Part shown: positions 3,540 to 51,499 of the stretch, in pieces
Numbering within the stretch: the first letter of the stretch is position 1
How the letters are laid out: every line of letters begins with the position of its first letter
Sequence record: PP359570
Strand: one strand, 5' to 3'
From: Escherichia phage ALITA
DNA length: 64,000 nucleotides
The notes under the pieces: generated by a model
The model's database searches: none
Seen by the model: only the letters and a program-made list of their open reading frames with translations
Told to the model about the DNA's origin: nothing
Made by a program: the position numbers and the translations under genes

Positions 3540-3615
3540 GGTTCCATAGCTCACTGACGAGAGCGCACACCTCATAAGTGTCGAGGGCAGGGATTGTAAC
3601 CCTGGGGAACCACCA
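3540..3615 (+). tRNA. tRNA-Met/Ile2 (anticodon CAT)
   Basis: Cloverleaf: acceptor GGTTCCA/GGGAACC, D-stem GCTC/GAGC, anticodon loop CTCATAA, T-stem CAGGG/CCCTG with atypical T-loop ATTGTAA, 3' ACCA encoded. Confidence 0.75.
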
Positions 3616-3646
3616 TTTAAAAGGAGGTGCTATGCATCTCCTATAT

Positions 3647-3732
3647 GCAAGTGTGGTGGAATTGGTGATACACATTGTGCTTAAAACGCAACGCTTAAAT
3701 GCTTGAGGGTTCGAATCCCTCCACTTGCACCA
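3647..3732 (+). tRNA. tRNA-Leu (anticodon TAA), type II
   Basis: Acceptor GCAAGTG/CACTTGC, anticodon loop CTTAAAA, 13-nt variable arm, T-loop GGGTTCGAATCCC, CCA encoded. Confidence 0.8.
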
Positions 3733-3734
3733 AC

Positions 3735-3840
3735 GCCTAGTAGGGTATTTGGTAATTCCGAGGCCATCAAAGCCTGAAAAATATGTTAGACCGTTTTGTC
3801 TAACTAAATACGAAATATGGTTCGATTCCATAACTAGGCT
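3735..3840 (+). tRNA. atypical long tRNA-like gene (about 106 nt), candidate anticodon TCA (would read UGA); Sec/Ser-like architecture
   Basis: Perfect 7-bp acceptor GCCTAGT/ACTAGGC, 6-bp D-stem with 4-nt loop, anticodon arm AGGC-CATCAAA-GCCT, long variable hairpin GTTAGAC-CGTTTT-GTCTAAC, canonical T-arm TATGG-TTCGATT-CCATA; no encoded CCA. Confidence 0.4.
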
Positions 3841-3875
3841 CCCGATTTAAATAGTAATTTTTTAATAAAAATATC

Positions 3876-3904
3876 TTGACATTTACTTAGTTTTTTGTTA
3901 TAGT
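3876..3904 (+). promoter_or_regulatory. sigma70-like promoter (-35 TTGACA 3876-3881, -10 TATAGT 3899-3904)
   Basis: Consensus hexamers, 17-bp spacer, TG upstream of -10; precedes tRNA at 3916. Confidence 0.55.
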
Positions 3905-3915
3905 CATTATGAAAA

Positions 3916-3997
3916 CGGGGTGTATCTCACCTGACTTCTAATCAGGCGTTAACCGAGTAATTGGAGTATGCAGGTTCGAATCCTGTCACCCCGGCCA
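3916..3997 (+). tRNA. tRNA-Arg-like (anticodon TCT), atypical: no canonical D-arm, 23-nt extra region
   Basis: Perfect acceptor CGGGGTG/CACCCCG, anticodon arm CCTGA-CTTCTAA-TCAGG, T-arm GCAGG-TTCGAAT-CCTGT, GCCA 3' end; only 7 nt between acceptor and anticodon stem. Confidence 0.45.
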
Positions 3998-4015
3998 AAA
4001 AGTTTTAAAAACTAC

Positions 4016-4044
4016 TTGACAAGCAAGATAGTTTTATGTTAGAT
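4016..4044 (+). promoter_or_regulatory. sigma70-like promoter (-35 TTGACA 4016-4021, -10 TTAGAT 4039-4044)
   Basis: Consensus -35, 17-bp spacer; precedes tRNA-Ser. Confidence 0.5.
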
Positions 4045-4060
4045 TTAAAGTATGGTAACA

Positions 4061-4150
4061 GGAAGGTAGGGCGCAGCGGTGCGCAACCAGGTTTGAACCC
4101 TGGCCCATTGTAGCGATACGGTGATGGTTCGACTCCATTATCTTCCTCCA
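4061..4150 (+). tRNA. tRNA-Ser (anticodon TGA), type II
   Basis: Acceptor GGAAGGT/ATCTTCC, anticodon arm CCAGG-TTTGAAC-CCTGG, long variable arm, T-loop GGTTCGACTCC, CCA encoded. Confidence 0.75.
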
Positions 4151-4168
4151 AATTCGCTTAGGAGCTTT

Positions 4169-4321
4169 ATGAATTATAAAACTATTGGACAGGTTGTTAC
4201 CGGAGTTAAGATTGTAAATAATAAAGTTGTTTATGAGTATTCTAATCTTCAACAATCTGAAGATGGTAAGAATATTTGTATGGTAAAAGCAGAACAAAAA
4301 GATTCCGGTTGTTTTGAATAA
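4169..4321 (+). CDS. hypothetical small protein (50 aa)
   Basis: ATG 4169 after SD aggag 4160-4164, immediately downstream of tRNA-Ser; ORF-track ORF 4121..4321 starts inside the tRNA so the internal ATG is preferred. Confidence 0.4.
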   Translation: MNYKTIGQVVTGVKIVNNKVVYEYSNLQQSEDGKNICMVKAEQKDSGCFE

Positions 4322-4329
4322 TTAAAAAC

Positions 4330-4415
4330 GGTAGATTGGTGAAATGGTAGCCACAACAGTTTGCTAAACTGTCGTCGGAAACGGCGTGTAGGTTCAAGTC
4401 CTACATCTACCGCCA
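4330..4415 (+). tRNA. tRNA-Ser (anticodon GCT), type II
   Basis: Acceptor GGTAGAT/ATCTACC, anticodon arm ACAGT-TTGCTAA-ACTGT, variable arm, T-arm GTAGG-TTCAAGT-CCTAC, CCA encoded. Confidence 0.8.
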
Positions 4416-4541
4416 AGTTATCTTTAATGTAGCTTGTAATCTTACTTTAGCAGAGTAAATCTTCGGCAAGTGGCAGTAACCACTTTACCGATAGCCCATA
4501 GTCAAGTGCCGCAAACACTGGCTATTTTAAAGATAATTTAT

Positions 4542-4617
4542 ACATCGTTAGCTTAGTTGGTAGAGCAAGGGGCTTTTAACTCCAAGGTCGAAGGTTCGAA
4601 TCCTTCACGATGTACCA
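4542..4617 (+). tRNA. tRNA-Lys (anticodon TTT)
   Basis: Acceptor ACATCGT/ACGATGT, D-arm GCTT-AGTTGGTA-GAGC, anticodon loop CTTTTAA, T-arm GAAGG-TTCGAAT-CCTTC, CCA encoded. Confidence 0.8.
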
Positions 4618-4622
4618 AACAC

Positions 4623-4709
4623 GTAGGTATCGCATAGCGGCAATTGCTGGAGACTGTAAATCTCTTGCCCTTCGGGGCTTCGTTGGTTCGAGTCCAACTA
4701 CCTGCACCA
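4623..4709 (+). tRNA. tRNA-Tyr (anticodon GTA), type II
   Basis: Acceptor GTAGGTA/TACCTGC, anticodon arm GGAGA-CTGTAAA-TCTCT, variable arm TGCCCTTCGGGGCTTC, T-arm GTTGG-TTCGAGT-CCAAC, CCA encoded. Confidence 0.75.
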
Positions 4710-4716
4710 AATTAAA

Positions 4717-4801
4717 GATGGATTGGCCTAGTGGTTGGGCGACGGACTGTTAATCCGTGAACGAAAGTTCTAGCAAGGTTCAAATCCTTGATCCATCGCC
4801 A
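4717..4801 (+). tRNA. tRNA-Asn (anticodon GTT) with unusually long variable arm
   Basis: Acceptor GATGGAT/ATCCATC, anticodon arm ACGGA-CTGTTAA-TCCGT, variable hairpin GAAC-GAAA-GTTC, T-arm CAAGG-TTCAAAT-CCTTG, CCA encoded. Confidence 0.6.
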
Positions 4802-4805
4802 AATA

Positions 4806-4873
4806 GTGCTTGTAGAGTTAATAGAAACCTCTAGAATTTTCTAGAATTGTAGGTATCAAATCCTACCAAGCAA
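4806..4873 (+). pseudogene. tRNA-like remnant (acceptor and T-arm-like pairing, no anticodon arm, no CCA)
   Basis: GTGCTTG/CAAGCAA acceptor-like pairing and GTAGG-TATCAAAT-CCTAC hairpin; internal region contains palindrome TCTAGAATTTTCTAGA instead of an anticodon arm. Confidence 0.25.
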
Positions 4874-4880
4874 ATATTTT

Positions 4881-4955
4881 GCTCCTATCGTATAACGGCT
4901 ATTACGGTTGCCTTGTAAGCAACTTATCAGGGTTCGAGTCCTTGTGGGAGCACCA
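4881..4955 (+). tRNA. tRNA-Thr (anticodon TGT)
   Basis: Acceptor GCTCCTA/TGGGAGC, anticodon arm GTTGC-CTTGTAA-GCAAC, T-loop GGGTTCGAGTCC, CCA encoded. Confidence 0.75.
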
Positions 4956-4977
4956 ATTTAACTCTAAAGGAGTGTAT

Positions 4978-5301
4978 GTGACAGAAAAAGAGTTAGAGAA
5001 ATATTTTAATATCAATGTTTTCGATGGTTTTGATGATATTGAAGATGTTGAAAGATATTATGAAGTAGAGTTAGATAAGGATAACATTGTAATTCTTTCT
5101 GCCACTTATGATTGTGCATATTATGAAGGCGAATCTCACGTTTATTTCTATGATATGAAAACATCTTTGTTTTATGAAGTACACGCATATCATTGTTCTT
5201 GTTATGGCTTAGAAGGTCAGTGGGAACCTGAAGAAATAGGTGATTTGAGCTTTACGGTTGCATATCTAAACAGACGTGGTGCATCTACTATTTTAAAATA
5301 A
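4978..5301 (+). CDS. hypothetical protein (acidic, Cys/His-containing)
   Basis: ORF-track ORF 4879..5301 begins inside tRNA-Thr; in-frame GTG 4978 follows SD aaggag 4967-4972 and is the likely start. Confidence 0.5.
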   Translation: MTEKELEKYFNINVFDGFDDIEDVERYYEVELDKDNIVILSATYDCAYYEGESHVYFYDMKTSLFYEVHAYHCSCYGLEGQWEPEEIGDLSFTVAYLNRRGASTILK

Positions 5302-5315
5302 ATATTAAAAGCCTC

Positions 5316-5345
5316 TTGACAAAGGGGCTAATAATATGTTAGAGT
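5316..5345 (+). promoter_or_regulatory. sigma70-like promoter (-35 TTGACA 5316-5321, -10 TAGAGT 5340-5345)
   Basis: Consensus -35, 18-bp spacer; precedes tRNA-Gly. Confidence 0.5.
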
Positions 5346-5356
5346 AATATTGTTAA

Positions 5357-5431
5357 GCGGGTATAGTGTTAATGGTAGCATATGAGGTTTCCACCCTCCA
5401 GGTGCAGGTTCAAGTCCTGTTACTCGCTCCA
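5357..5431 (+). tRNA. tRNA-Gly (anticodon TCC)
   Basis: Acceptor GCGGGTA/TACTCGC, anticodon loop TTTCCAC, T-arm GCAGG-TTCAAGT-CCTGT, CCA encoded; resembles bacterial tRNA-Gly(UCC). Confidence 0.8.
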
Positions 5432-5530
5432 AGATTATTTAAATGGAATCGCTAGAGAAAATTTCTCTTTTCGCTCATGGTTTTCTCCTTCAAACTCTAG
5501 CGGTTCTTTTTAAGTGATTTTTAGTTTTAT

Positions 5531-5605
5531 TGGAGATTAGCCTAGTGGGAAGGCAACGGCCTTTGAAGTCGTGATGACTAGGTTCGATTCCTAGATCTCC
5601 AGCCA
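5531..5605 (+). tRNA. tRNA-Gln (anticodon TTG)
   Basis: 5' U1 with A72 (TGGAGAT/ATCTCCA) as in bacterial tRNA-Gln, anticodon arm ACGGC-CTTTGAA-GTCGT, T-arm CTAGG-TTCGATT-CCTAG, GCCA end. Confidence 0.8.
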
Positions 5606-5647
5606 ATTAATTGCATAGCATGAGTATTTCTCATTGGTTAAAAGGAG

Positions 5648-6013
5648 ATGCAAGTGAATTGTGAACATTGTGGTAGTGAGTTTACTTTGATAAAAGGTCA
5701 TGGTGGACAAAACAGATCATACTGTTACACTTGTATTCCAGAAGGTTTAGATAAACAAGTACGCACAAGATTACATCAAGAACTTAGAAGAGAGCGATCT
5801 CATAAGATGAAACTTGATTTAGGTTGCAAAGTGTGTGGTTATGCTAAATGTGCAGTAGCACTAGAATGGCATCACCCAGAGGACGATAAGAAACACGATC
5901 CATCTAATGCAATCAAAAGATCTTGGTCTGCTTACTTAGAAGAGACTGAAAAGTGTATCTTACTATGTGCCAATTGTCATAGAGAAGTACATGCTGGTCT
6001 TATACAGGTTTAA
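5648..6013 (+). CDS. HNH homing endonuclease (free-standing, inside tRNA array)
   Basis: 121-aa ORF; CxxC...CxxC zinc-binding pairs and HNH motif WHHPEDDKKHDP...LLCANCHREVH; alternative start GTG 5654 has better SD spacing. Confidence 0.85.
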   Translation: MQVNCEHCGSEFTLIKGHGGQNRSYCYTCIPEGLDKQVRTRLHQELRRERSHKMKLDLGCKVCGYAKCAVALEWHHPEDDKKHDPSNAIKRSWSAYLEETEKCILLCANCHREVHAGLIQV

Positions 6014-6014
6014 T

Positions 6015-6090
6015 CAGTGCGTAGCGCAGTTGGTAGCGTGGGAGCCTTGGACGCTTCAGGTCGCAGGTTCGAGTCCTGCCGCACTGACCA
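6015..6090 (+). tRNA. tRNA-Pro (anticodon TGG)
   Basis: Perfect acceptor CAGTGCG/CGCACTG, anticodon arm GGAGC-CTTGGAC-GCTTC, T-arm GCAGG-TTCGAGT-CCTGC, CCA encoded; starts 2 nt after HNH stop. Confidence 0.8.
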
Positions 6091-6095
6091 AATTT

Positions 6096-6170
6096 GCAGA
6101 GATAGCTGAGACGGATTAGTGCTACCCTGAAAAGGTAGAAAGGATGGATCGTTACCATCTCTCTGCACCA
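6096..6170 (+). tRNA. tRNA-Phe (anticodon GAA)
   Basis: Acceptor GCAGAGA/TCTCTGC, anticodon arm CTACC-CTGAAAA-GGTAG, T-arm GATGG-ATCGTTA-CCATC (non-canonical T-loop), CCA encoded. Confidence 0.7.
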
Positions 6171-6247
6171 GATAATACCATCCAAGGAGAATACTTGGTT
6201 AACTGTCAATAGCACATTGAGGCTTCTTACAGTGGTGTACTTATTAT

Positions 6248-6332
6248 GGCTAAGTGGTGGAATGGTATACACGATACGCTTAGAACGTATTGCCCCAAGG
6301 GATTGTGAGTTCGAGTCTCACCTTAGCTACCA
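6248..6332 (+). tRNA. tRNA-Leu (anticodon TAG), type II
   Basis: Acceptor GGCTAAG/CTTAGCT, anticodon arm ATACG-CTTAGAA-CGTAT, variable hairpin CCC-CAA-GGG, T-arm GTGAG-TTCGAGT-CTCAC, CCA encoded. Confidence 0.75.
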
Positions 6333-6347
6333 AATTATTACAGGTTT

Positions 6348-6426
6348 CGCGGGATAGAGGAGTCTGGTCGTCCTCGCCAGTTTCATATGCTGGAGATCGT
6401 AGGTTCAAATCCTACTCCCGTTACCA
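6348..6426 (+). tRNA. tRNA-Met/Ile2 (anticodon CAT), second copy
   Basis: Acceptor CGCGGGA/TCCCGTT (terminal mismatch), D-arm GAGG/CCTC, anticodon arm CCAGT-TTCATAT-GCTGG, T-arm GTAGG-TTCAAAT-CCTAC, CCA encoded. Confidence 0.6.
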
Positions 6427-6470
6427 ATAAATACCTCCCTTCTGGTGTAATGATTAAATTACATTGACAC

Positions 6471-42745: not shown

Positions 42746-44905
42746 ATGTATCCTATTCCTTTATTTATGTCAACAACATCAGCTTCAGTAGTAACAGCTA
42801 CATCTATAACTACTTCCTCTATTGGTATTGCAATAGTTGGTGGTAAAAAACAACTGACATACACAGTTACACCCGAAGATGGTGCGTTATTTGATATAGC
42901 TTTTTCATCTTCAGATGATACCAAAATGGTTATAGATAATAGTGGTATGATGGAGTTTGTTGCCGAAGGTGGTTTTGATGCAATAATGACAGCTAAAAAT
43001 AATTTAGGTGCTGTCTTAACTGATCAATCTGGTGGTTATGCTTCAGAATTAAGTGTGTACACTGAAAGTCTATCGGCTATGGATGTAGGCACTACTCAAC
43101 AGTTGGTTGCTACAATCAGTCCAGAAGGTGCTAAAGACCTTCCAGATATGGTAATTACATACACCACAACAGATCCAGAAGTAGCTACTGTAAGCCCTAC
43201 AGGGTTAATAACTGCTCTTAAAGATGGCGGTTGCCGTATAGGTTGTACTGCAACGTATCAAGGAACAGTTGTGGCCTCTGATAGTTCTTATTTAGGTGTT
43301 AATGCTATTCCTGTTATTTCTAATGTAACAGCCGTGGCAAACAGCTATGGAGACGTTCGTGTTGCTTGGGATGTAGCTGATCCGCTAGACGGTGATACTT
43401 ATACTGTAGAAGTATTAGATTTAAGTAATAATAGTGTTCAGTGGACTACAACAACCACGAATACTTACGCCTACTTTGATATCTCTGACTCTATTCCTCT
43501 TTATGGGTTTGCTCCAACATACCTTAAAATTAGCGTTAAGAGCACCAAAGCAGCAGCCGTTATCTTTAATAACTCAATAGCTACAGATGATTCGTTCATT
43601 AAAGAAGTTATTGTCTTTGCTGGACAAGATAACGTAAATGCACACTTTACAGAACTATCTGGTGCAAATAAAGCAGCAATGGGTAGCACAACAGCCCGTA
43701 ATGCATATGCTACGCAACGTGGTTTAGCAAATGCTGAAGTTCTTCCGTTAAATACAGCTTCTGGATCATCAGCAGCAGATAAATATGCTGACGATAAAGC
43801 TGGAACAGGTACACCAGATAACTACTGGTATGATTTGGATAACACAGCAGATGGGCCATGCTTAACTAACTTTATCACTAAAGTCACACCTTATGCAAGT
43901 AAGGTTAAAGCAATTATTTGGGGACAAGGTGAAAATGATGCTGTATCAGCATCTTCGACTGTTGCAGGTAGGTACAGTAACACTACACGTTACCATGATG
44001 CTACGATAGCTATCTTTGATAAGATGCGTACAATAGTTCCTGCTTCTCAAGCAAAAATTGTTTGGCAGATCCTAGGACGTTCTTATTTATATGGTGTAGA
44101 AGTTAATGGTGTGGATTGGCAGAAGTACAGAAATGTACAAAGAACCATCTCTACAGCACGTGATGATGTTATCATTGGTTCTTGGGTAGATGGTGCTGAA
44201 CGTTACAGTGGTTATGTTTATGAAGAAGGTATTGATGGTCGTATCCATTATGTTTCTTCTGTATACCAAACAGCAGCTACAAAACTTGCTAAATCAGCAG
44301 CAGACGGTACAGACTTAACATCAACGTCACCTGTTTGGGTTGATATGGCTGTTCCAACTGGAGCAACAGCTACTTCCCAACCTAATCAAGATACAATTTT
44401 AGCATGGGATGCTCAAGGCTATAGTAAACACTACTTCCGTAATATTAACGTCTTAACCGCATCTGTATTAACTGAACAAACGCTTAATACGAACAGTTAT
44501 ACGTTTACCTATGCAGATCAAGTAGAACAATATGGTTTTGCAGCAGGAACTACTATATTTGATGTTGCATATTATGACGAAGCAAATGATGTGTTATCTC
44601 CTTTAGTACGTTTTAATGTTAACGTTACAGCAGGAACCGTAGAAGATAAACCTGTCGTGATGGACTATGATTTGACGCAAGAAACTCTTCCATCAGATGT
44701 TAAGGTTAATGGTGGGAACTCTTTTGCTCGTGCTTCTGGAGATATACTTGTAGCCACTAACACCTTGGTTGCTCCGTTGGAGTATGTTGGTAATACCCCT
44801 GTAGGTAGACGTGTAACAGCTAACACAGCTTCACAAATTTTTGTCAACAACGCCTTAACAAGTGCAAGCCCGTGGGTAAAGACCAACTTAACTGTTGCAG
44901 CTTAA
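42746..44905 (+). CDS. tail fibre / tailspike with SASA-type (SGNH-like) carbohydrate esterase domain
   Basis: 719-aa ORF; esterase-like motifs VIVFAGQDNVNAHF and KAIIWGQGENDA in the central region; Ig-like N-terminal region. Confidence 0.5.
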   Translation: MYPIPLFMSTTSASVVTATSITTSSIGIAIVGGKKQLTYTVTPEDGALFDIAFSSSDDTKMVIDNSGMMEFVAEGGFDAIMTAKNNLGAVLTDQSGGYASELSVYTESLSAMDVGTTQQLVATISPEGAKDLPDMVITYTTTDPEVATVSPTGLITALKDGGCRIGCTATYQGTVVASDSSYLGVNAIPVISNVTAVANSYGDVRVAWDVADPLDGDTYTVEVLDLSNNSVQWTTTTTNTYAYFDISDSIPLYGFAPTYLKISVKSTKAAAVIFNNSIATDDSFIKEVIVFAGQDNVNAHFTELSGANKAAMGSTTARNAYATQRGLANAEVLPLNTASGSSAADKYADDKAGTGTPDNYWYDLDNTADGPCLTNFITKVTPYASKVKAIIWGQGENDAVSASSTVAGRYSNTTRYHDATIAIFDKMRTIVPASQAKIVWQILGRSYLYGVEVNGVDWQKYRNVQRTISTARDDVIIGSWVDGAERYSGYVYEEGIDGRIHYVSSVYQTAATKLAKSAADGTDLTSTSPVWVDMAVPTGATATSQPNQDTILAWDAQGYSKHYFRNINVLTASVLTEQTLNTNSYTFTYADQVEQYGFAAGTTIFDVAYYDEANDVLSPLVRFNVNVTAGTVEDKPVVMDYDLTQETLPSDVKVNGGNSFARASGDILVATNTLVAPLEYVGNTPVGRRVTANTASQIFVNNALTSASPWVKTNLTVAA

Positions 44906-45046
44906 TCTGATAAATCTCCGGCTGGAACTACTGCCAATGTATTCAAATTAACTCCGACTACAACCTCTGGTAGTCATATCTTAACTGCAACATATACTAA
45001 CGCGTACAACATATCTGCCGGACGTAACTGGTCTGCCTCTGTTTTC

Positions 45047-45565
45047 TTGAAAGCGAACGGGATCACTAAGGCCAAACTAAGATTAAAAGCAGGAACTGAA
45101 GTTAATGAGGGTACTTTTGATTTAGCAGCAGGTACATTCACAGGAAGTGAAGCTAATATTATATCTATGGGCAACGGTTGGTATCGTGCTATTCTGCATA
45201 AAACAGGGATAGCCAAACAGTCCTCCATAAGTTTTGAAATAATTGCCTTGGATGCAACTGGTGCGGAGATTTTCGCTGGAGATGGTACTAGTAACCTTGC
45301 AGTTTGGTTGCCACAGCTTGAAGGTGCTTCTACAGGAGAAACATCAAAAGCTGGATCGCCTTATGTCTGCACATATCCTGGAAATTTAGGAGGAGTATCC
45401 TTCACTATACCAAGGAACGGACATACTGGTGTGGATGTTTACTATTCCAACGGAGACGTTGTTCGTGACGTATTCTCTGGTACGGCATCTACTTGGACAA
45501 TAAACTACTCCAGCTTGTACGATTGGGGATCAGTCTTTATTACAGGTTTGAAATATTACGACTAA
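45047..45565 (+). CDS. ORF in the same frame as the upstream tail fibre gene, separated only by a TAA (possible read-through extension, C-terminal domain gene or pseudogenised 3' part)
   Basis: 44906-45046 contains 47 sense codons in frame with 42746..44905; first conventional start is TTG 45047 without SD. Confidence 0.3.
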   Translation: MKANGITKAKLRLKAGTEVNEGTFDLAAGTFTGSEANIISMGNGWYRAILHKTGIAKQSSISFEIIALDATGAEIFAGDGTSNLAVWLPQLEGASTGETSKAGSPYVCTYPGNLGGVSFTIPRNGHTGVDVYYSNGDVVRDVFSGTASTWTINYSSLYDWGSVFITGLKYYD

Positions 45566-45567
45566 TA

Positions 45568-45597
45568 AAAAAGGAGCCATTAGGCTCCTTTTCTTTT
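45568..45597. terminator. bidirectional rho-independent terminator between convergent gene blocks
   Basis: AAGGAGCC-ATTA-GGCTCCTT hairpin flanked by AAAAA upstream and TTCTTTT downstream. Confidence 0.65.
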
Positions 45598-45600
45598 ATC

Positions 45601-46032
45601 TTAGTCAGTGAAAATTACGCTTACATCTTCTTTAGAAAAGAGTTTATGATCTTCACCTTTTGTCTCAAGAGTTTCATACAGATTAAGAAGTTCTGAAACA
45701 TCTTTCTCTACCAGTTTCTTCAATGTTGCAATTTTCTGTTTGCGACTCTTAATACGTTCAGCTACAACCTTACGCTGGTATCCGGCAGTACGATAACCTG
45801 AGAAAGTTACACCAGTAAGGCTTGCAGTCACAGGATCGTAGTGACGTTCAATCTGAAACTTATTAAAAGGTACAGCGTCATCACGAATAATCTTACCGCC
45901 ATTACTTACCTGACGAAGACCAGTAACTTGCTCCAGTCGTGCCATAGAAATCTTTGGAGACAGACCAGAGTCCAGGTTCATACCATTGTTAATCAGTGCT
46001 TTCAGGGTGATTTTGCTGTTCAGTGTACTCAT
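45601..46032 (-). CDS. hypothetical protein
   Basis: 143-aa ORF; 5' end overlaps methyltransferase gene 3' end by 44 nt. Confidence 0.45.
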   Translation of the reverse strand: MSTLNSKITLKALINNGMNLDSGLSPKISMARLEQVTGLRQVSNGGKIIRDDAVPFNKFQIERHYDPVTASLTGVTFSGYRTAGYQRKVVAERIKSRKQKIATLKKLVEKDVSELLNLYETLETKGEDHKLFSKEDVSVIFTD

Positions 46033-46720
46033 TTAGTCGTTCCTCCGCTTGCTTAAAAATATTTACATCGGCTTCACAGCCTAAGTATTCTCTACCTGTT
46101 AAAAGTGCCGCAACTTGTGTTGTTGCACTTCCAGAGAAGAAGTCTAAGACTACATCTCCTTCGTTGGTGTGTATATTAATAAGGTCACAAAACAAAGTCA
46201 AGTGTTTTTGTGTTGGATGAAAACGATCTGCTCCTTGATAGATAGGATACTCAAACACACCCTTATGGTAGGAAGCATTGAAGGTTGGCTTCGAACCTTT
46301 AACACAAACAATAGCCATCTCTTTAGCGTTACTAAGGTAGTTAACACCACTGTTGATGGGTACAGGGTTTGTTTTAATCCATTCGATAGTACGGAACATA
46401 CGAAAACCAAGCGGTTCAAGGATTTCACGTAGCTCCTGGATCTTCCAGATATCATACCAAACTATGCAAGTACCACCTTTTCTAAGCACCCTGTAGGCTT
46501 CTTTGAATACTTCTTTAAAGTAAGGAATATCTACAACATCCCAATCACCGAAGTTGTAAGATACACGGAATCTATCCGTATCTTTTCCAGTCGGCTCTCC
46601 AGATTGAAAATTTGTGTCACGAGAAATAGCATATGGTGGGTCAGTAAGAATCAAATCTACACTATTGCTTTCGAGGGTTTGCAGGTAGTTTAATGCGGTG
46701 TTGTTTACAAATTCGCTCAT
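45989..46720 (-). CDS. DNA methyltransferase, beta class (N6-adenine or N4-cytosine)
   Basis: 243-aa ORF; DPPY motif (LILTDPPYAI) near N-terminus and AdoMet-binding FFSGSATT near C-terminus; SD aaggag. Confidence 0.85.
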   Translation of the reverse strand: MSEFVNNTALNYLQTLESNSVDLILTDPPYAISRDTNFQSGEPTGKDTDRFRVSYNFGDWDVVDIPYFKEVFKEAYRVLRKGGTCIVWYDIWKIQELREILEPLGFRMFRTIEWIKTNPVPINSGVNYLSNAKEMAIVCVKGSKPTFNASYHKGVFEYPIYQGADRFHPTQKHLTLFCDLINIHTNEGDVVLDFFSGSATTQVAALLTGREYLGCEADVNIFKQAEERLNEYTEQQNHPESTD

Positions 46721-46736
46721 TATATCTCCTTCAAAG

Positions 46737-46758
46737 AAAAGGAGCCGTTAGGCTCCTT
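46737..46758 (-). terminator. rho-independent terminator / attenuator on minus strand
   Basis: GGAGCC-GTTA-GGCTCC hairpin, T-run on minus strand; near-duplicate of the hairpin at 45571-45590. Confidence 0.45.
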
Positions 46759-46780
46759 ATATTCACACAATATTTAACTA

Positions 46781-47728
46781 TTAGAAACAGTGCAGGAAGT
46801 TTCGACCATACTGCAAACCAATAGGAGCAAATGGGATATCATCATCGAAATCTTGAACAACAGGTTCTGGTTCTTTCGGTGCTGGCTCTTTCTTCTCTAC
46901 TTTTTTAGTTTCTTTCTTAACTTCTTGTACCGGGGTAGACATTCCACGGATAGCAGCAGCTACTTTATCAGACAAAGCAAGAACTTCACGAGCAGCTTCA
47001 ATAATCTCTTCTGCCGTTACAGTTTTACCTGTATGATCACGACAAGCGTTAAGAATTGCGTGTCCAACTGAAGCACCAAGATCATAGTCAGTTACATCAA
47101 CGCCACGATCTTTAGCAATTTCTGCTTTCAGAGTAACAGTTGCAGATTGTACCACACCAGCCAAGTCGAAAGCATCACCTTTCACACCAGCACGTAGAAG
47201 CTCCAGAGCGCCGTTTACAGCGTGTCCTGTTTCAATCCCTACGGTATCACGTTTTTTGTAGTTAGGCTTGCTACCTTCGTTATTAGATGGCTTATTTCCA
47301 CCTTTTGAAGAAGATTGTGCTTGCTGAACACCTTCTGTTGAAAGAATAGTGATTTTACCTTTAGAGGAATTGTAGTATGTTTTGCCATTCCATTCAGAAG
47401 GTTTAACATCCATAGTTAGTTCTACACCTTTTTCGATAGTAACCCACTTATCACCATCTTTAACTTGCAGGTTTTCATGTTCTGGGTGCAGTTTAACTTC
47501 ACCTAGGCTAACCCAAACACCTTTATCATCAGCACCAGCACCTTTCTCTTTAATAAGCAGGGATGCTTTGTGAGTTGATTCAATTTTCTTATCTGGCTGA
47601 CCTGCAACCTTAATATAAGAAACTTTCATTTCATCAAACTTATCTAGTTTGACATATTCAACGATACCTTCAGCCCAGAATGCTTCTTTTTTAGTACGAC
47701 GGTCGATTTCAGAATTAATTACTGGCAT
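46781..47728 (-). CDS. SSB-like protein (contains DFDDDIPF acidic tip motif followed by a 15-aa extension)
   Basis: 315-aa ORF with SD; Gly/Ser/Asn-rich linker then VQDFDDDIPF near C-terminus. Confidence 0.5.
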   Translation of the reverse strand: MPVINSEIDRRTKKEAFWAEGIVEYVKLDKFDEMKVSYIKVAGQPDKKIESTHKASLLIKEKGAGADDKGVWVSLGEVKLHPEHENLQVKDGDKWVTIEKGVELTMDVKPSEWNGKTYYNSSKGKITILSTEGVQQAQSSSKGGNKPSNNEGSKPNYKKRDTVGIETGHAVNGALELLRAGVKGDAFDLAGVVQSATVTLKAEIAKDRGVDVTDYDLGASVGHAILNACRDHTGKTVTAEEIIEAAREVLALSDKVAAAIRGMSTPVQEVKKETKKVEKKEPAPKEPEPVVQDFDDDIPFAPIGLQYGRNFLHCF

Positions 47729-48186: not shown

Positions 48187-48780
48187 TTAAATTTTAAATT
48201 CTTCACTGTTAAATGAATCCAGTGTACGTACTTCTGGTTCTTTGGGAATGAAAACATCTTTTACAAAGCGGAACATAGGGAAACGTTCTGCCATTTTACG
48301 GACGTGTGCTTCTTTACCTGTGTATCGGTGATTAATAGTACAAATATTAGTTTTCAGTGCAAATTCAAAATCTGGATGATATACATAATTTTGACCGTCC
48401 CAGTAACACAGGCAAATAGCTACATCAAAGTTCCATACGATTTCACTGCGTACACCTTCTTCCATGATCATAAAGTTAAACTTAAGATCTTTATAGTATG
48501 CTTCAAATACCCATTTCAAATGTGGTAGTTCGGCATAAGTGTGTTCTGTTTGCTTAGTAAGTTGTTTAACATTACGTGCACCAACACCCAACATCAAAAA
48601 TTTCTCTACTAATACGAGTGTATTGTGGTTAGGCATACGCAAGTAAATGTCAATATCTTGCGCAGGTTTCTCTAATCGCCAGTCACGTACAGCGCCGCCA
48701 GCTACAATTGCAAACGGATCTACCAGTTGGCACATACGTAATACTTCTAAAGCTCGTACTTTTTGATCTTCAATATTCAT
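48187..48780 (-). CDS. minimal nucleotidyltransferase of the CCA-adding enzyme / poly(A) polymerase head-domain family
   Basis: 197-aa ORF; motif IVAGGAVRDWRLEKPAQDIDIYL matches the GGxVRD...DxD signature of class II tRNA nucleotidyltransferases. Confidence 0.55.
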   Translation of the reverse strand: MNIEDQKVRALEVLRMCQLVDPFAIVAGGAVRDWRLEKPAQDIDIYLRMPNHNTLVLVEKFLMLGVGARNVKQLTKQTEHTYAELPHLKWVFEAYYKDLKFNFMIMEEGVRSEIVWNFDVAICLCYWDGQNYVYHPDFEFALKTNICTINHRYTGKEAHVRKMAERFPMFRFVKDVFIPKEPEVRTLDSFNSEEFKI

Positions 48781-48919: not shown

Positions 48920-51499
48920 CTAATGACAAGACGCCCATGAGTTACCAACATCGTAACCAGCAGTGAGAGGTACATTAAGATTGTAATACTCACCAGCTTT
49001 ATTAACAGCGATAGATGCTAATTCTCCAGCACGACTGTAGGCTGTAAACCAACCACCTTTCGGAGATTCATGTACGTTAGCCCAAATCTTGCCAGTACGT
49101 TTCTCTTCCTCTTCTTTCCAGGCATTAACCTTATCCAAACATTCTTTATCAATTTTCTTTTGTTCTTCTGGATCATCAACTTGAGTCCAACCTAAAGATT
49201 CTTTAGAGAACCATTTAAAATGCACCAGATCACGAGTTACTTCAAGCTGTGCTTCATCGTGATATGCAATCATTTGTTGAACGAATGACTTATTTTTCCA
49301 GTCATCAACAAAAAAGTCAACAGCTAATCCTTCTTCTTCGATAAGATCGTCGTAGATAACCATTGCTCTTTTTGCACAAATAACACCACCACTCTGGAAC
49401 AGAGAGTTAAGTATTGCGTGTGCAGATCGTGTAGGTACTTTCCTACCATCAATACCAAGAATGTATTTCTTACCTGTTTTAACCCAAAAATCATGCAGAC
49501 GTTCTTTAAGAAGCGCAAGAGGTTTTGCAGCTTCCCAGAAAGCATCGTATACAAGCTGTCCTGTATACATATCACTACCTATAGTTTTTGCTACTTTTGC
49601 AGCTTGAGCACCATAAGTAATACCATACTTAACAGATTTAGCAGGGCTTCGTTCAAACTTACGACCAATAGTGTCAGAAATACGTCGAGCCATCATTGTA
49701 TGAACATCATTAGGTTTTTCCAATAATAGAGCATTACAATATTCGTGTGGTTCCTGCTCGTACCGCCAACAGTAGTGTGATTCTATTTTTGCCTCAAGAG
49801 AATCAAAGTCATAACCAATTTGGAAGTATTTTGGAACTTCTACACCAAATAAGTTACGCATTTCATATCCGTACAGAGATGTTACACGTGGGATATTTGC
49901 TACTAACCTATGTTTCATACGAGACGTAGCTGCATCACACGTTGCAGCAGGAGTTGGTATACGACCATCAGCCCTTACTGCTGCCAGATAACCTTTATCG
50001 TAATCCTCTTCATCTTCTTCCCAATCAGCACCACCCCCTAGAATAGAGTTCCTACGGTGTTTATACGTAAGATACTGCACAATCTGCGTAGCATAAGGAA
50101 ACTTTTCACCTAGTGCTTCCAAGTTAGGACAAATATCTTTCTCTTGCCCTTTTGTAAAGGAAGGGTTAGTAAGCACTTTAACACCACGACCTTTAGCTTT
50201 AGCAATACGATCTCTTAGTTTCCATTCCAAAGTTTCTGGTGTGCACTCCAGATGATCACATCTGTCCTGGCAGAAGTTAGATGCTAACGTTTGATCAACA
50301 TAGTCACGAATAGCTTTCTCCATCTGTGCTTCATCTTTCTTAATCTTAGTGCCAGATTTAAGAGTGATATCTTTATCTTTATATTCAGATGGACTCCAAC
50401 CTAAACCAACTAACCAATTTTTAATATGTGTAGTGTCGTCTAAAGTAGCAGGTACTGTAGGATCACAAATAGGTTCTTCTGCTGGAATAGGCAGTTTAAA
50501 CTCTTTACCTAATGCAAATAACCACCAACCATCTTCTTTTTGTACAAGTTCACCAGAATGTTTCTCTGCAAACTTTATCATGTTACTTGAAGGTTCACCA
50601 TTCTTTTTAAACTGTAGTTTAGGTGGAATGAATGATTTCAAATAACCTTTAGTAGCAGGTTTAGGAGGTAGCACAGGTTCTGCCTCTAAACGACATGCTT
50701 CCATTCGAGCATCCAGATCACGAATATTATCTTCTGCTTGCTTCATATTGAAAGCAAAGCCACGGTGCTCTTGACGTGTAATAATATCAGCTACACGTTG
50801 TTCTAAGTTAAATGGTTCAGACCACTTATTATAATCACCCCACTCTTCCATCAAATAACGGAACACTGCGGTGTTAGCTTTGTTATCGTAAATACAGTAA
50901 TACAGCATATCTGCTGCAAATGTTTTAAATCTTTCAGTTTCAGGGATGTTTTTTCTAAAATCAATTTTAACATCCCCTCCAGCTTTCTTAGATAACTCTG
51001 CCAGACTATGACCACCGAAGCGATCAGGGTTTAGTGTCTTACTTAAGATCATAGTATCACAAATTTCAATGTTACTATTACCCCAAGTATTGTACTTAAT
51101 ACTGTAGTTGAGTTTAAAAAATAATTTAATTGCCAGTAAGTCAAAGTTAATGATGTTATGTCCAACTACTTTGGTAATTTTATAGTTTGAATTACCTTTA
51201 AATTTACCTGTTCCATTTACAAAATCAGGAAAATCTTTAAGAGGGAAATGGGTATATTCTAAATGCTCATATTCCTCCAGTCGGTATTCATACTTTCCGT
51301 CAGTCTCAATATACGGACGACCATCGAAAAGATATTTATCACCATCATGGAAAGCAATAATCTCTCCAGTATCATGACTTTCGCACACAATACAGTGCAT
51401 TGCAAAACTATCTTTTAAACGATATGGACTTGCCAAGTAATCTACACTTTCGTCATTAAGCAAGTTGTTACTTTCAATGTCGAAAGTAAAAGCTCCCAT
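48920..51499 (-). CDS. DNA polymerase, family A, with 3'-5' exonuclease domain
   Basis: 859-aa ORF; N-terminal exo motif FTFDIES, motif B-like KSVKYGITYGAQAAK, motif C MIAYHDEAQLEV; strong SD. Confidence 0.9.
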   Translation of the reverse strand: MGAFTFDIESNNLLNDESVDYLASPYRLKDSFAMHCIVCESHDTGEIIAFHDGDKYLFDGRPYIETDGKYEYRLEEYEHLEYTHFPLKDFPDFVNGTGKFKGNSNYKITKVVGHNIINFDLLAIKLFFKLNYSIKYNTWGNSNIEICDTMILSKTLNPDRFGGHSLAELSKKAGGDVKIDFRKNIPETERFKTFAADMLYYCIYDNKANTAVFRYLMEEWGDYNKWSEPFNLEQRVADIITRQEHRGFAFNMKQAEDNIRDLDARMEACRLEAEPVLPPKPATKGYLKSFIPPKLQFKKNGEPSSNMIKFAEKHSGELVQKEDGWWLFALGKEFKLPIPAEEPICDPTVPATLDDTTHIKNWLVGLGWSPSEYKDKDITLKSGTKIKKDEAQMEKAIRDYVDQTLASNFCQDRCDHLECTPETLEWKLRDRIAKAKGRGVKVLTNPSFTKGQEKDICPNLEALGEKFPYATQIVQYLTYKHRRNSILGGGADWEEDEEDYDKGYLAAVRADGRIPTPAATCDAATSRMKHRLVANIPRVTSLYGYEMRNLFGVEVPKYFQIGYDFDSLEAKIESHYCWRYEQEPHEYCNALLLEKPNDVHTMMARRISDTIGRKFERSPAKSVKYGITYGAQAAKVAKTIGSDMYTGQLVYDAFWEAAKPLALLKERLHDFWVKTGKKYILGIDGRKVPTRSAHAILNSLFQSGGVICAKRAMVIYDDLIEEEGLAVDFFVDDWKNKSFVQQMIAYHDEAQLEVTRDLVHFKWFSKESLGWTQVDDPEEQKKIDKECLDKVNAWKEEEEKRTGKIWANVHESPKGGWFTAYSRAGELASIAVNKAGEYYNLNVPLTAGYDVGNSWASCH

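Follow-up and report, generated by a model that had tools for sequence, protein, structure and literature searches.

A DNA methyltransferase and a nuclease-free relative of IceA/NlaIII endonucleases in phi92-like phages: a candidate CATG module

Phage DNA methyltransferases without a neighbouring endonuclease gene are routinely classed as orphans that shield the genome against host restriction. The gene at positions 45989-46720 (minus strand) of the stretch of Escherichia phage ALITA analyzed here (sequence record PP359570; 64,000 nucleotides, hereafter the window) was placed in this class by an initial annotation. It raises the question of whether the enzyme acts alone or together with the small gene that overlaps its 3' end (45601-46032, minus strand, 143 aa). 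The window originates from a phi92-like E. coli myovirus of the genus Justusliebigvirus; across its region 45400-47000 the identity is 99.4% with phage Paula and 98-99% with phi92, alia, PaulScherrer and numerous further phages. The two genes are the orthologues of Phi92_gp155 and Phi92_gp154, respectively, and are referred to as gp155 and gp154. Taken as a whole, the analysis makes it somewhat probable that this pair is best read as an exapted CATG restriction-modification module that is free of a nuclease.

The methylase gp155 and its overlapping partner gp154

The gp155 product (243 aa, ATG start) matched the Pfam family PF01555 (N6_N4_Mtase) over the full profile (positions 1-221 of 221; E = 1.9e-30, 106.9 bits with a cutoff of 26.7), as well as PHROG 67 'DNA methyltransferase' (2.5e-56) and the PADLOC model for type II methyltransferases (1.5e-46). 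The protein is 100% identical in many Justusliebigvirus genomes, and its nearest relative of solved structure is M1.HpyAVI (5hek), which aligned to residues 19-238 with an E-value of 1.1e-28. Two motifs were read from the sequence: the catalytic motif IV, DPPY, which is typical of N6-adenine enzymes (residues 27-30; 46631-46642, minus strand), and motif I, FSGSA, an S-adenosylmethionine (AdoMet) site of the FxGxG type (residues 195-199; 46124-46138, minus strand). Among 27 relatives, D27, P28 and P29 of motif IV and F195 and G197 of motif I are invariant, and Y30 and S198 are nearly so. Because motif IV precedes motif I, which corresponds to a circular permutation, gp155 belongs to the beta class. 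This order and the full-length PF01555 match bear out the class that had been proposed from the initial inspection. The most conserved block between the motifs, TNPVP...HPTQK (residues 117-172; 46205-46372, minus strand), is the presumed target-recognition region. The columns E113, W114, K116-P121, N123, Y128, L129, N131, E134, R166, H168 and T170-K172 are invariant in the methylases linked to gp154 homologues and in those linked to ICEA endonucleases, which are described below. The presence of DPPY instead of SPPY and the nearest relatives point to modification of adenine at N6. By its sequence, gp155 falls into a known family as an intact N6-adenine DNA methyltransferase of the beta class, and it had been annotated in GenBank before as a putative DNA methyltransferase.

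Two narrower labels that occur in some GenBank records were rejected. 'Dam-like' would imply an alpha-class enzyme, which needs the reverse motif order, and a match to Pfam D12 (MethyltransfD12) is absent. The label 'type III methylation subunit' (Mod) is opposed by a PADLOC type III match that is only partial and much weaker (1.8e-12) than that of the type II model. No gene for a type III Res helicase-nuclease was found among the neighbouring genes examined.

The coding sequences of gp155 and gp154 overlap by 44 nt (45989-46032), exactly as noted in the initial annotation. Together with the ribosome-binding site of gp154, a GGAGGA Shine-Dalgarno sequence at 46041-46046 that lies inside gp155, the overlap forms an element at 45989-46046 (minus strand), and translational coupling of the two genes is likely. 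Overlaps of 29-41 nt between a methylase gene and a gp154 homologue are kept in three other phage contexts.

No match to gp154 was obtained in Pfam, NCBIfam or PADLOC, and the PHROG family that it matched (PHROG 20244, 3.9e-83) has no assigned function. A profile of its close relatives retrieved only 32 clusters from 1.84 billion proteins, mostly proteins of 100-143 aa, and a scan of IMG/VR with the gp154 alignment yielded only three gp154 loci. The origin of the family is indicated by a protein of 206 aa, P0151, which was matched by the gp154 profile with a library-wide E-value of 1.3e-5. Its first 110 residues align to gp154, they are followed by a Cys/His-rich C-terminus, and the protein is itself a member of the Pfam family ICEA (PF05315) at 1.6e-16. 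As P0151 belongs to both families, it bridges gp154 to ICEA. PF05315 includes NlaIII and IceA1, type II endonucleases with a His-Me finger, and IceA1 is an isoschizomer of NlaIII that recognises CATG. The relationship was also recovered by reciprocal hmmsearch. An ICEA profile built from 55 open reading frames (ORFs) adjoining methylase homologues, with no gp154-family sequence in it, matched the gp154 of the window with an E-value near 1e-5; conversely, 15 ICEA proteins were matched by the gp154 profile. Comparison of both alignments with hhalign gave a probability of 96.7% and an E-value of 3.8e-10 for gp154 residues 20-86 (66 columns; 45775-45975, minus strand), which correspond to the N-terminal region of the endonucleases and share about 18% identity with ICEA proteins. 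The best-conserved residues of gp154, G23, S25, E34, N44, G45, R50, D52, F77 and G79, fall on conserved ICEA positions, and the shared consensus reads GFS...EL...NGxQWARSD...LDG.

The catalytic and zinc-binding half of the ICEA proteins (consensus C...IExDHKDGRYD...DFQPLSKAANDAKRxHCKxC...CxGCYWYDP) has no counterpart in gp154, which contains no Cys and no conserved His. Instead, residues 83-125 (45658-45786, minus strand) are predicted by AlphaFold (AF2) to form one long helix. With this helix in place of the His-Me (HNH)/zinc nuclease half, gp154 should bind DNA rather than cut it, and the helix presumably drives oligomerisation. The model was computed from an alignment of 19 sequences and has a predicted local distance difference test score (pLDDT) of 90.4, whereas an earlier model from five sequences was poor (58.6). 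Besides the long helix it comprises helices 3-15 and 30-37 and a beta-hairpin at 59-80, and the region shared with the endonucleases appears winged-helix-like. In Foldseek searches the model gave weak matches, most of them to DNA-binding proteins with a winged helix (MarR-type HpaR on DNA, TFE-alpha, PadR and RTP). In a viral library, the homologue from Pseudoalteromonas phage J2-1 was found at 2.4e-10, and a giant-virus protein named ICEA1 ranked fifth with a probability of 0.85. A PDB sequence search with an ICEA protein returned no solved structure. It is highly probable from these comparisons that gp154 shares ancestry with the N-terminal region of the ICEA endonucleases and has lost the nuclease domain, which would make it a relative of PF05315 at the level of a domain and not a member of the family.

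Comparison of gp154 with its copy at the metagenome locus L005 (loci are given by L numbers) yielded nonsynonymous (pN) and synonymous (pS) differences of 0.24 and 0.71, respectively, and a dN/dS of about 0.14, and length and architecture of the family are kept down to about 25% identity. This pattern of substitutions marks gp154 as a working gene under purifying selection, not a decaying one. The orphan status proposed by the initial annotation therefore stands in one respect only. No functional restriction endonuclease gene adjoins gp155: an intact one is neither annotated nor detectable near it, either in the window or in Paula (99.4% identity), and a separately encoded ICEA-type HNH protein, as expected for a 'split' endonuclease, was found neither in the whole window nor in Paula nor in the whole J2-1 genome. 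However, the downstream ORF itself appears to derive from the cognate endonuclease family. The functional link between the two genes that had been suspected is corroborated, since both show selection, which is purifying in the case of gp154, and the two move together as one cassette.

CATG as candidate target sequence

The gp155 family comprises 5126 proteins at E <= 1e-10, and relatives that are 45-57% identical to gp155 directly adjoin a PF05315 gene. In a census of 129 non-redundant methylase loci (69 cellular, 60 viral), in which adjacent ICEA genes on the same strand were counted, such a gene adjoined the methylase in 33 of the cellular and 15 of the viral loci (48/129 in total). A gp154 homologue took the place of ICEA in seven viral loci, and 38 of the 60 had no partner at all. 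The methylases linked to gp154 form one clade in a neighbour-joining tree, nested in a family with widespread ICEA linkage. The classical CATG methylase located beside iceA in H. pylori, M.HpyAI, is an alpha-class enzyme; the beta family of gp155 is thus a second methylase family that is paired with ICEA-type enzymes.

Pairs of a complete ICEA endonuclease and a beta-class methylase also occur on phage-like contigs from IMG/VR and Logan (L008, L009, L021-L023, L025, L027, L032, L035 and L036). The endonuclease gene lies upstream in these pairs, and the contigs also carry genes for T4-type RNA ligase and HNH proteins. Such pairs would be phage-borne restriction-modification systems.

Throughout the window (1-64000) CATG is depleted, with 77 occurrences observed and 211.6 expected under a second-order model. 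The observed-to-expected ratio (O/E) of 0.36 is the lowest of all 16 palindromic tetramers, while that of GATC is 0.93. All 4-kb bins are affected, the variable tail-fibre genes least, and no CATG lies within the cassette. In the other gp154-bearing phages, pooled, CATG likewise ranks first of 16 with an O/E of 0.38, compared to 0.85 in rV5 and 0.86 in phAPEC8 of the same subfamily, both of which lack the cassette, and 0.75 in 50 kb of E. coli K-12. CATG is the sequence that tracks the gp155-gp154 module, and it is likely to be the module's target.

A target other than CATG, either GAGG-like as in M1.HpyAVI or GATC as the 'Dam-like' labels imply, would require another cause for the CATG depletion and is considered quite unlikely. 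Such a target is suggested by the best relatives in the PDB, which are M1.HpyAVI/DpnA-like (1e-28), by the records that name the enzyme Dam-like, and by the alpha class of the classical CATG methylases. M1.HpyAVI is reported to recognise GAGG. However, the relative in the PDB shares little identity with gp155, and the similarity covers the fold only; nor is gp155 of the Dam (D12) class. Relatives that are much closer, with 45-57% identity, have ICEA endonucleases as partners and the conserved central block in common with gp155, and CATG is the one palindrome that follows the cassette.

Homologues of gp154 are located directly 3' of a beta-class methylase gene, and overlap it, in several different phage contexts. 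The pair lies between the gene for a protein resembling single-stranded DNA-binding protein (SSB) and tail genes in the phi92-type context, after PhoH and before ClpP in L006, between dihydrofolate reductase (DHFR) and ribonucleotide reductase in L007, and after a helix-turn-helix (HTH) protein in L018 and L019. Of 22 additional metagenome loci, 16 had this arrangement too. In the loci L184-L187, which form a divergent gp154 branch, the overlapping upstream gene encodes a different small putative methylase of 178-190 aa with an SNPPF motif. It matches PHROG 799 'DNA methyltransferase' with E-values of 1e-28 to 1e-32 and shows no resemblance to the beta family. The replacement by an unrelated methylase while gp154 stays, as it occurs in restriction-modification modules, suggests that gp154 needs a cognate methylase. 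The SNPPF genes (L184:3472-4008, L186:783-1355, L187:3-521 and L185:1-183) are located on low-GC (0.30-0.36) metagenome contigs; their products show only weak matches to Pfam methylase families and have no solved relative.

It is very improbable that gp155 protects or regulates alone, as a plain orphan methylase, with gp154 being either a remnant undergoing decay or a small gene unrelated to it. This explanation agrees with the databases, which list gp155 as a methyltransferase and gp154 as hypothetical, and with the share of partnerless loci in the viral part of the census. It is contradicted by the excess of synonymous over nonsynonymous differences between diverged gp154 copies and by the retention of the family to about 25% identity with a constant length and a new C-terminal helix. 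It also does not account for an overlap and a gene order that are kept in different genomes, or for the linkage to a second methylase family.

Two independent lineages harbor gp154 without an adjacent methylase gene. One is J2-1 (MF988720.1; L176+L180+L181), whose complete genome of 142,204 bp contains no member of the beta methylase family; an HNH gene near its gp154 homologue is not ICEA-like. In this genome CATG does not occur, with 348 sites expected. The other is a phi92-like lineage of about 147 kb (L015, L190, L191 and L193) with the synteny gp158-gp157-gp156-gp154, of which about 12 kb were read, so that a methylase gene may be located elsewhere. Here CATG is absent as well, with 17-38 sites expected per locus (none in the 12.4 kb sampled). 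The carriers of gp154 thus fall into two groups, having either a methylase beside gp154 or available sequence that is devoid of CATG. Those with a methylase show CATG O/E values from 0 to about 0.86. The J2-1 genome is also devoid of CCGG (95 expected), and complete avoidance of two tetramers is unusual.

Possible function of the pair

The following mechanism would be consistent with these data. The two-gene cassette would descend from a type II restriction-modification system of the IceA/NlaIII type, and gp155 would produce C(m6A)TG (m6A, N6-methyladenine) on replicating phage DNA. It is known that m6A within CATG blocks cleavage by NlaIII. gp154 may bind unmethylated CATG as a dimer, by means of its winged-helix-like domain and the long helix. 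Methylation would keep the phage genome out of reach of gp154, and in the relatives without a methylase the complete loss of CATG would do the same job. From the split into carriers with a methylase and carriers without CATG, the useful targets of gp154 would be host or competing DNA. That the methylase serves as an 'antidote' which shields phage DNA from the phage's own gp154 is a tentative proposal, more doubtful than the choice of CATG as target. The fuller version is proposed with slightly less confidence still: a nuclease-free, 'restriction-like' module in lytic phages, in which a winged-helix domain derived from a CATG endonuclease would bind unmethylated CATG on host or rival DNA to block it, mark it or recruit factors to it, and the methylase would be an antidote, with protection from host enzymes at most a secondary role. 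Pure self-protection against host restriction is conceivable, but it does not explain why gp154 is retained, nor why CATG is entirely missing from the carriers without a methylase.

Several points weigh against this interpretation. The evidence for CATG specificity is indirect, as the classical iceA-linked methylase M.HpyAI is of the alpha and not of the beta class, and specificity can vary within endonuclease families. The methylase-bearing relatives L007 and L019 are little depleted in CATG. Only two independent lineages carry gp154 without a methylase, and the lack of CCGG in J2-1 means that host-driven site avoidance operates there, so that the argument from its missing CATG sites is not airtight. 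With respect to gp154, even Pfam's own ICEA model does not match it, and Foldseek relates its model to winged-helix proteins only weakly (E at least 0.05, TM-score about 0.3); its DNA binding, its dimerisation and its preference for unmethylated sites are properties that we infer.

Alternatively, gp154 might be an accessory protein or regulator of the methylase: a factor that loads it onto CATG, a reader of hemimethylated or fully methylated C(m6A)TG, comparable to SeqA and GcrA at the sites that these recognise, or a timing control like the controller (C) proteins. The overlapping and probably translationally coupled genes, the consistent pairing of gp154 with methylase genes and the predicted architecture of winged helix and long helix, which is typical of dimeric regulators, agree with such a role. 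However, two lineages keep gp154 without an adjacent methylase or any CATG in the available sequence, where nothing would be left to load or to read, and the ICEA-linked homologues of gp155 work without such a partner. The pairing of gp154 with two unrelated methylase families also argues against a specific partnership at the protein level. A regulatory role is thus unlikely, although it is the most plausible of the alternatives. A controller protein in the strict sense, a small XRE-type HTH protein whose gene lies upstream of that for the endonuclease, was rejected, since gp154 lacks a match to any HTH family, lies downstream of the methylase in the position of the endonuclease and is homologous to the latter.

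The pair might also serve counter-defence only. Hosts would cut CATG, the phage would avoid or methylate these sites, and gp154 would act as a decoy on CATG or as a dominant-negative poison of IceA/NlaIII-type enzymes. The apparent derivation of gp154 from this endonuclease family is compatible with such a role, and avoidance of CATG is a classical signature of restriction pressure; J2-1 also purges CCGG. Yet rV5 and phAPEC8 infect E. coli too and show no CATG depletion. The explanation is further weakened by the rarity of the presumed enzymes: in tblastn searches with one ICEA query, none of 50,697 GenBank phage records and one of 72,556 plasmids, a Priestia megaplasmid, gave a match, and none was enterobacterial. 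An identity of about 18% between gp154 and ICEA is poor for poisoning by heterodimer formation. Moreover, an inhibitor would be useless to a phage that is free of CATG, yet CATG-free phages keep gp154. Counter-defence as the sole function therefore appears improbable, even more so than a different methylation target. None of the restriction systems tested with the BASEL collection is known to target CATG. The BASEL data, in which phi92-like phages were very sensitive to the systems tested, thus neither support nor refute protection by gp155.

If the interpretation as an exapted, nuclease-free module is correct, restriction-modification modules can be converted into devices that recognise self and non-self DNA without cleavage. 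A virus would have a new way to distinguish its own genome from that of its host, and a CATG recognition domain could be studied apart from its nuclease. The supposed orphan retains a conserved and selected endonuclease fragment that is predicted not to cut and that accompanies either putative CATG methylation or full loss of CATG. Even a cautious reading provides a concrete prediction of the methylated motif in widely used E. coli phages (phi92 and BASEL Bas60-62), gives the hypothetical gp154 family a first assignment and offers a candidate explanation for the CATG depletion. The starting observation is ordinary, as gp155 was annotated previously. In the literature no earlier description was found of the gp154 family, its link to ICEA, CATG methylation in phi92-like phages or their CATG depletion.

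Setting of the cassette and comparison with known systems

gp155 and gp154 terminate a leftward replication operon that comprises the genes for DNA polymerase, a nucleotidyltransferase, gp157 and the SSB-like gp156. The pair is convergent with the tail-fibre genes, so that the cassette is positioned between the replication and the tail-fibre modules. It is bounded upstream by the terminator-like hairpin AAGGAGCC-GTTA-GGCTCCTT (46739-46758) and downstream by AAGGAGCC-ATTA-GGCTCCTT (45571-45590), a bidirectional terminator that also serves the convergent tail-fibre gene. Exactly two near-identical copies of this hairpin are present in the 64-kb window, where none is expected by chance. In the Phapecoctavirus ESCO5, which belongs to the same subfamily, only 56 nt separate the SSB-like gene from the tail gene; they contain one copy of the hairpin and no cassette. 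Among the 50,697 GenBank phage records, gp155 is at least 99% identical in 55 records of the Justusliebigvirus type, and the next match is at 47%. gp154 is present in the same records and, as one distant homologue, in J2-1. This distribution and the empty site of ESCO5 indicate that the cassette is a discrete insertion in the phi92-like lineage. Four 'Campylobacter phage' records with C. jejuni as host, MG065639, MG065645, MG065656 and MG065689 (A150, A145, C3 and A110a), are about 98.5% identical to the phi92-like E. coli phages here; mislabelling or contamination seems likely.

Further observations concern the neighbouring genes. The lateral tail-fibre gene of 939 codons (42746-45565, plus strand; PAULA_0165 orthologue) is interrupted by an in-frame stop at 44903-44905. 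At codon 720, TCA of Paula and PaulScherrer is replaced by TAA, which yields ORFs of 719 and 172 aa; this may reflect a genuine mutation, linked to host range or of laboratory origin, or an error in sequencing. The gp156 orthologue (46781-47728, minus strand; 315 aa) has no Pfam match, shares 57-61% identity with proteins of Phapecoctavirus-type phages and is annotated among related phages either as single-stranded DNA-binding protein or as hypothetical. Between it and the polymerase gene, the gp158 orthologue (48187-48780, minus strand) encodes a small nucleotidyltransferase (PHROG 1614, 2.6e-34; weak match to the Pfam PolyA_pol head domain), the homologue of which in L005 shows a weak Gad2 match. 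The DNA polymerase gene (48920-51499, minus strand) has 859 codons and is intein-free, whereas its PaulScherrer orthologue (L001, 16007-19321) is annotated with an intein of 245 aa. A cluster of 15 tRNA genes at 3540-6648 (plus strand), including two for tRNA-Met and one for tRNA-Ile, matches the annotated tRNA block of Paula.

Among known systems, the cassette is most readily compared with the type IIP systems of IceA1 and NlaIII. Relatives of its methylase adjoin PF05315 genes, whose products share homology with gp154 in their N-terminal region, the methylase gene precedes and overlaps that of its partner, and CATG stands out in the genomes of the carriers. In contrast to a complete system of this type, the neighbour of gp155 has neither a Pfam ICEA match nor a His-Me motif nor zinc cysteines, its nuclease half being replaced by the long helix, and the cassette resides in a lytic phage. 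The iceA-linked M.HpyAI differs from gp155 in its class. The cassette thus resembles restriction-modification in gene order, coupling and swapping of methylases, but it lacks the nuclease that defines such systems. M1.HpyAVI of Helicobacter pylori (5hek/5hfj) has the same size and motif order as gp155 and likewise carries DPPY and FxGxG motifs; as the similarity is limited, its specificity need not carry over.

DNA-binding domains of restriction enzymes can also occur without cleavage. The winged-helix domain of DpnI reads methylated GATC, and plant B3 domains are related to the N-domain of EcoRII. By analogy, gp154 may represent the recognition domain of a restriction enzyme that acts as a pure DNA binder. 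Unlike gp154, those domains are not free-standing and coupled to a methylase in phages, and no sequence relation between them and gp154 was found.

Finally, solitary DNA methyltransferases of phages have been described, e.g. T4 Dam (Murphy et al. 2013, cited in PMC12210895). Like these, gp155 is an adenine methylase without a functional endonuclease gene and presumably modifies the replicating phage genome. It differs from them in two respects: the genome is depleted of the presumed target, which would be needless for an orphan that fully protects itself, and gp155 keeps a conserved and selected endonuclease derivative as its coupled partner.

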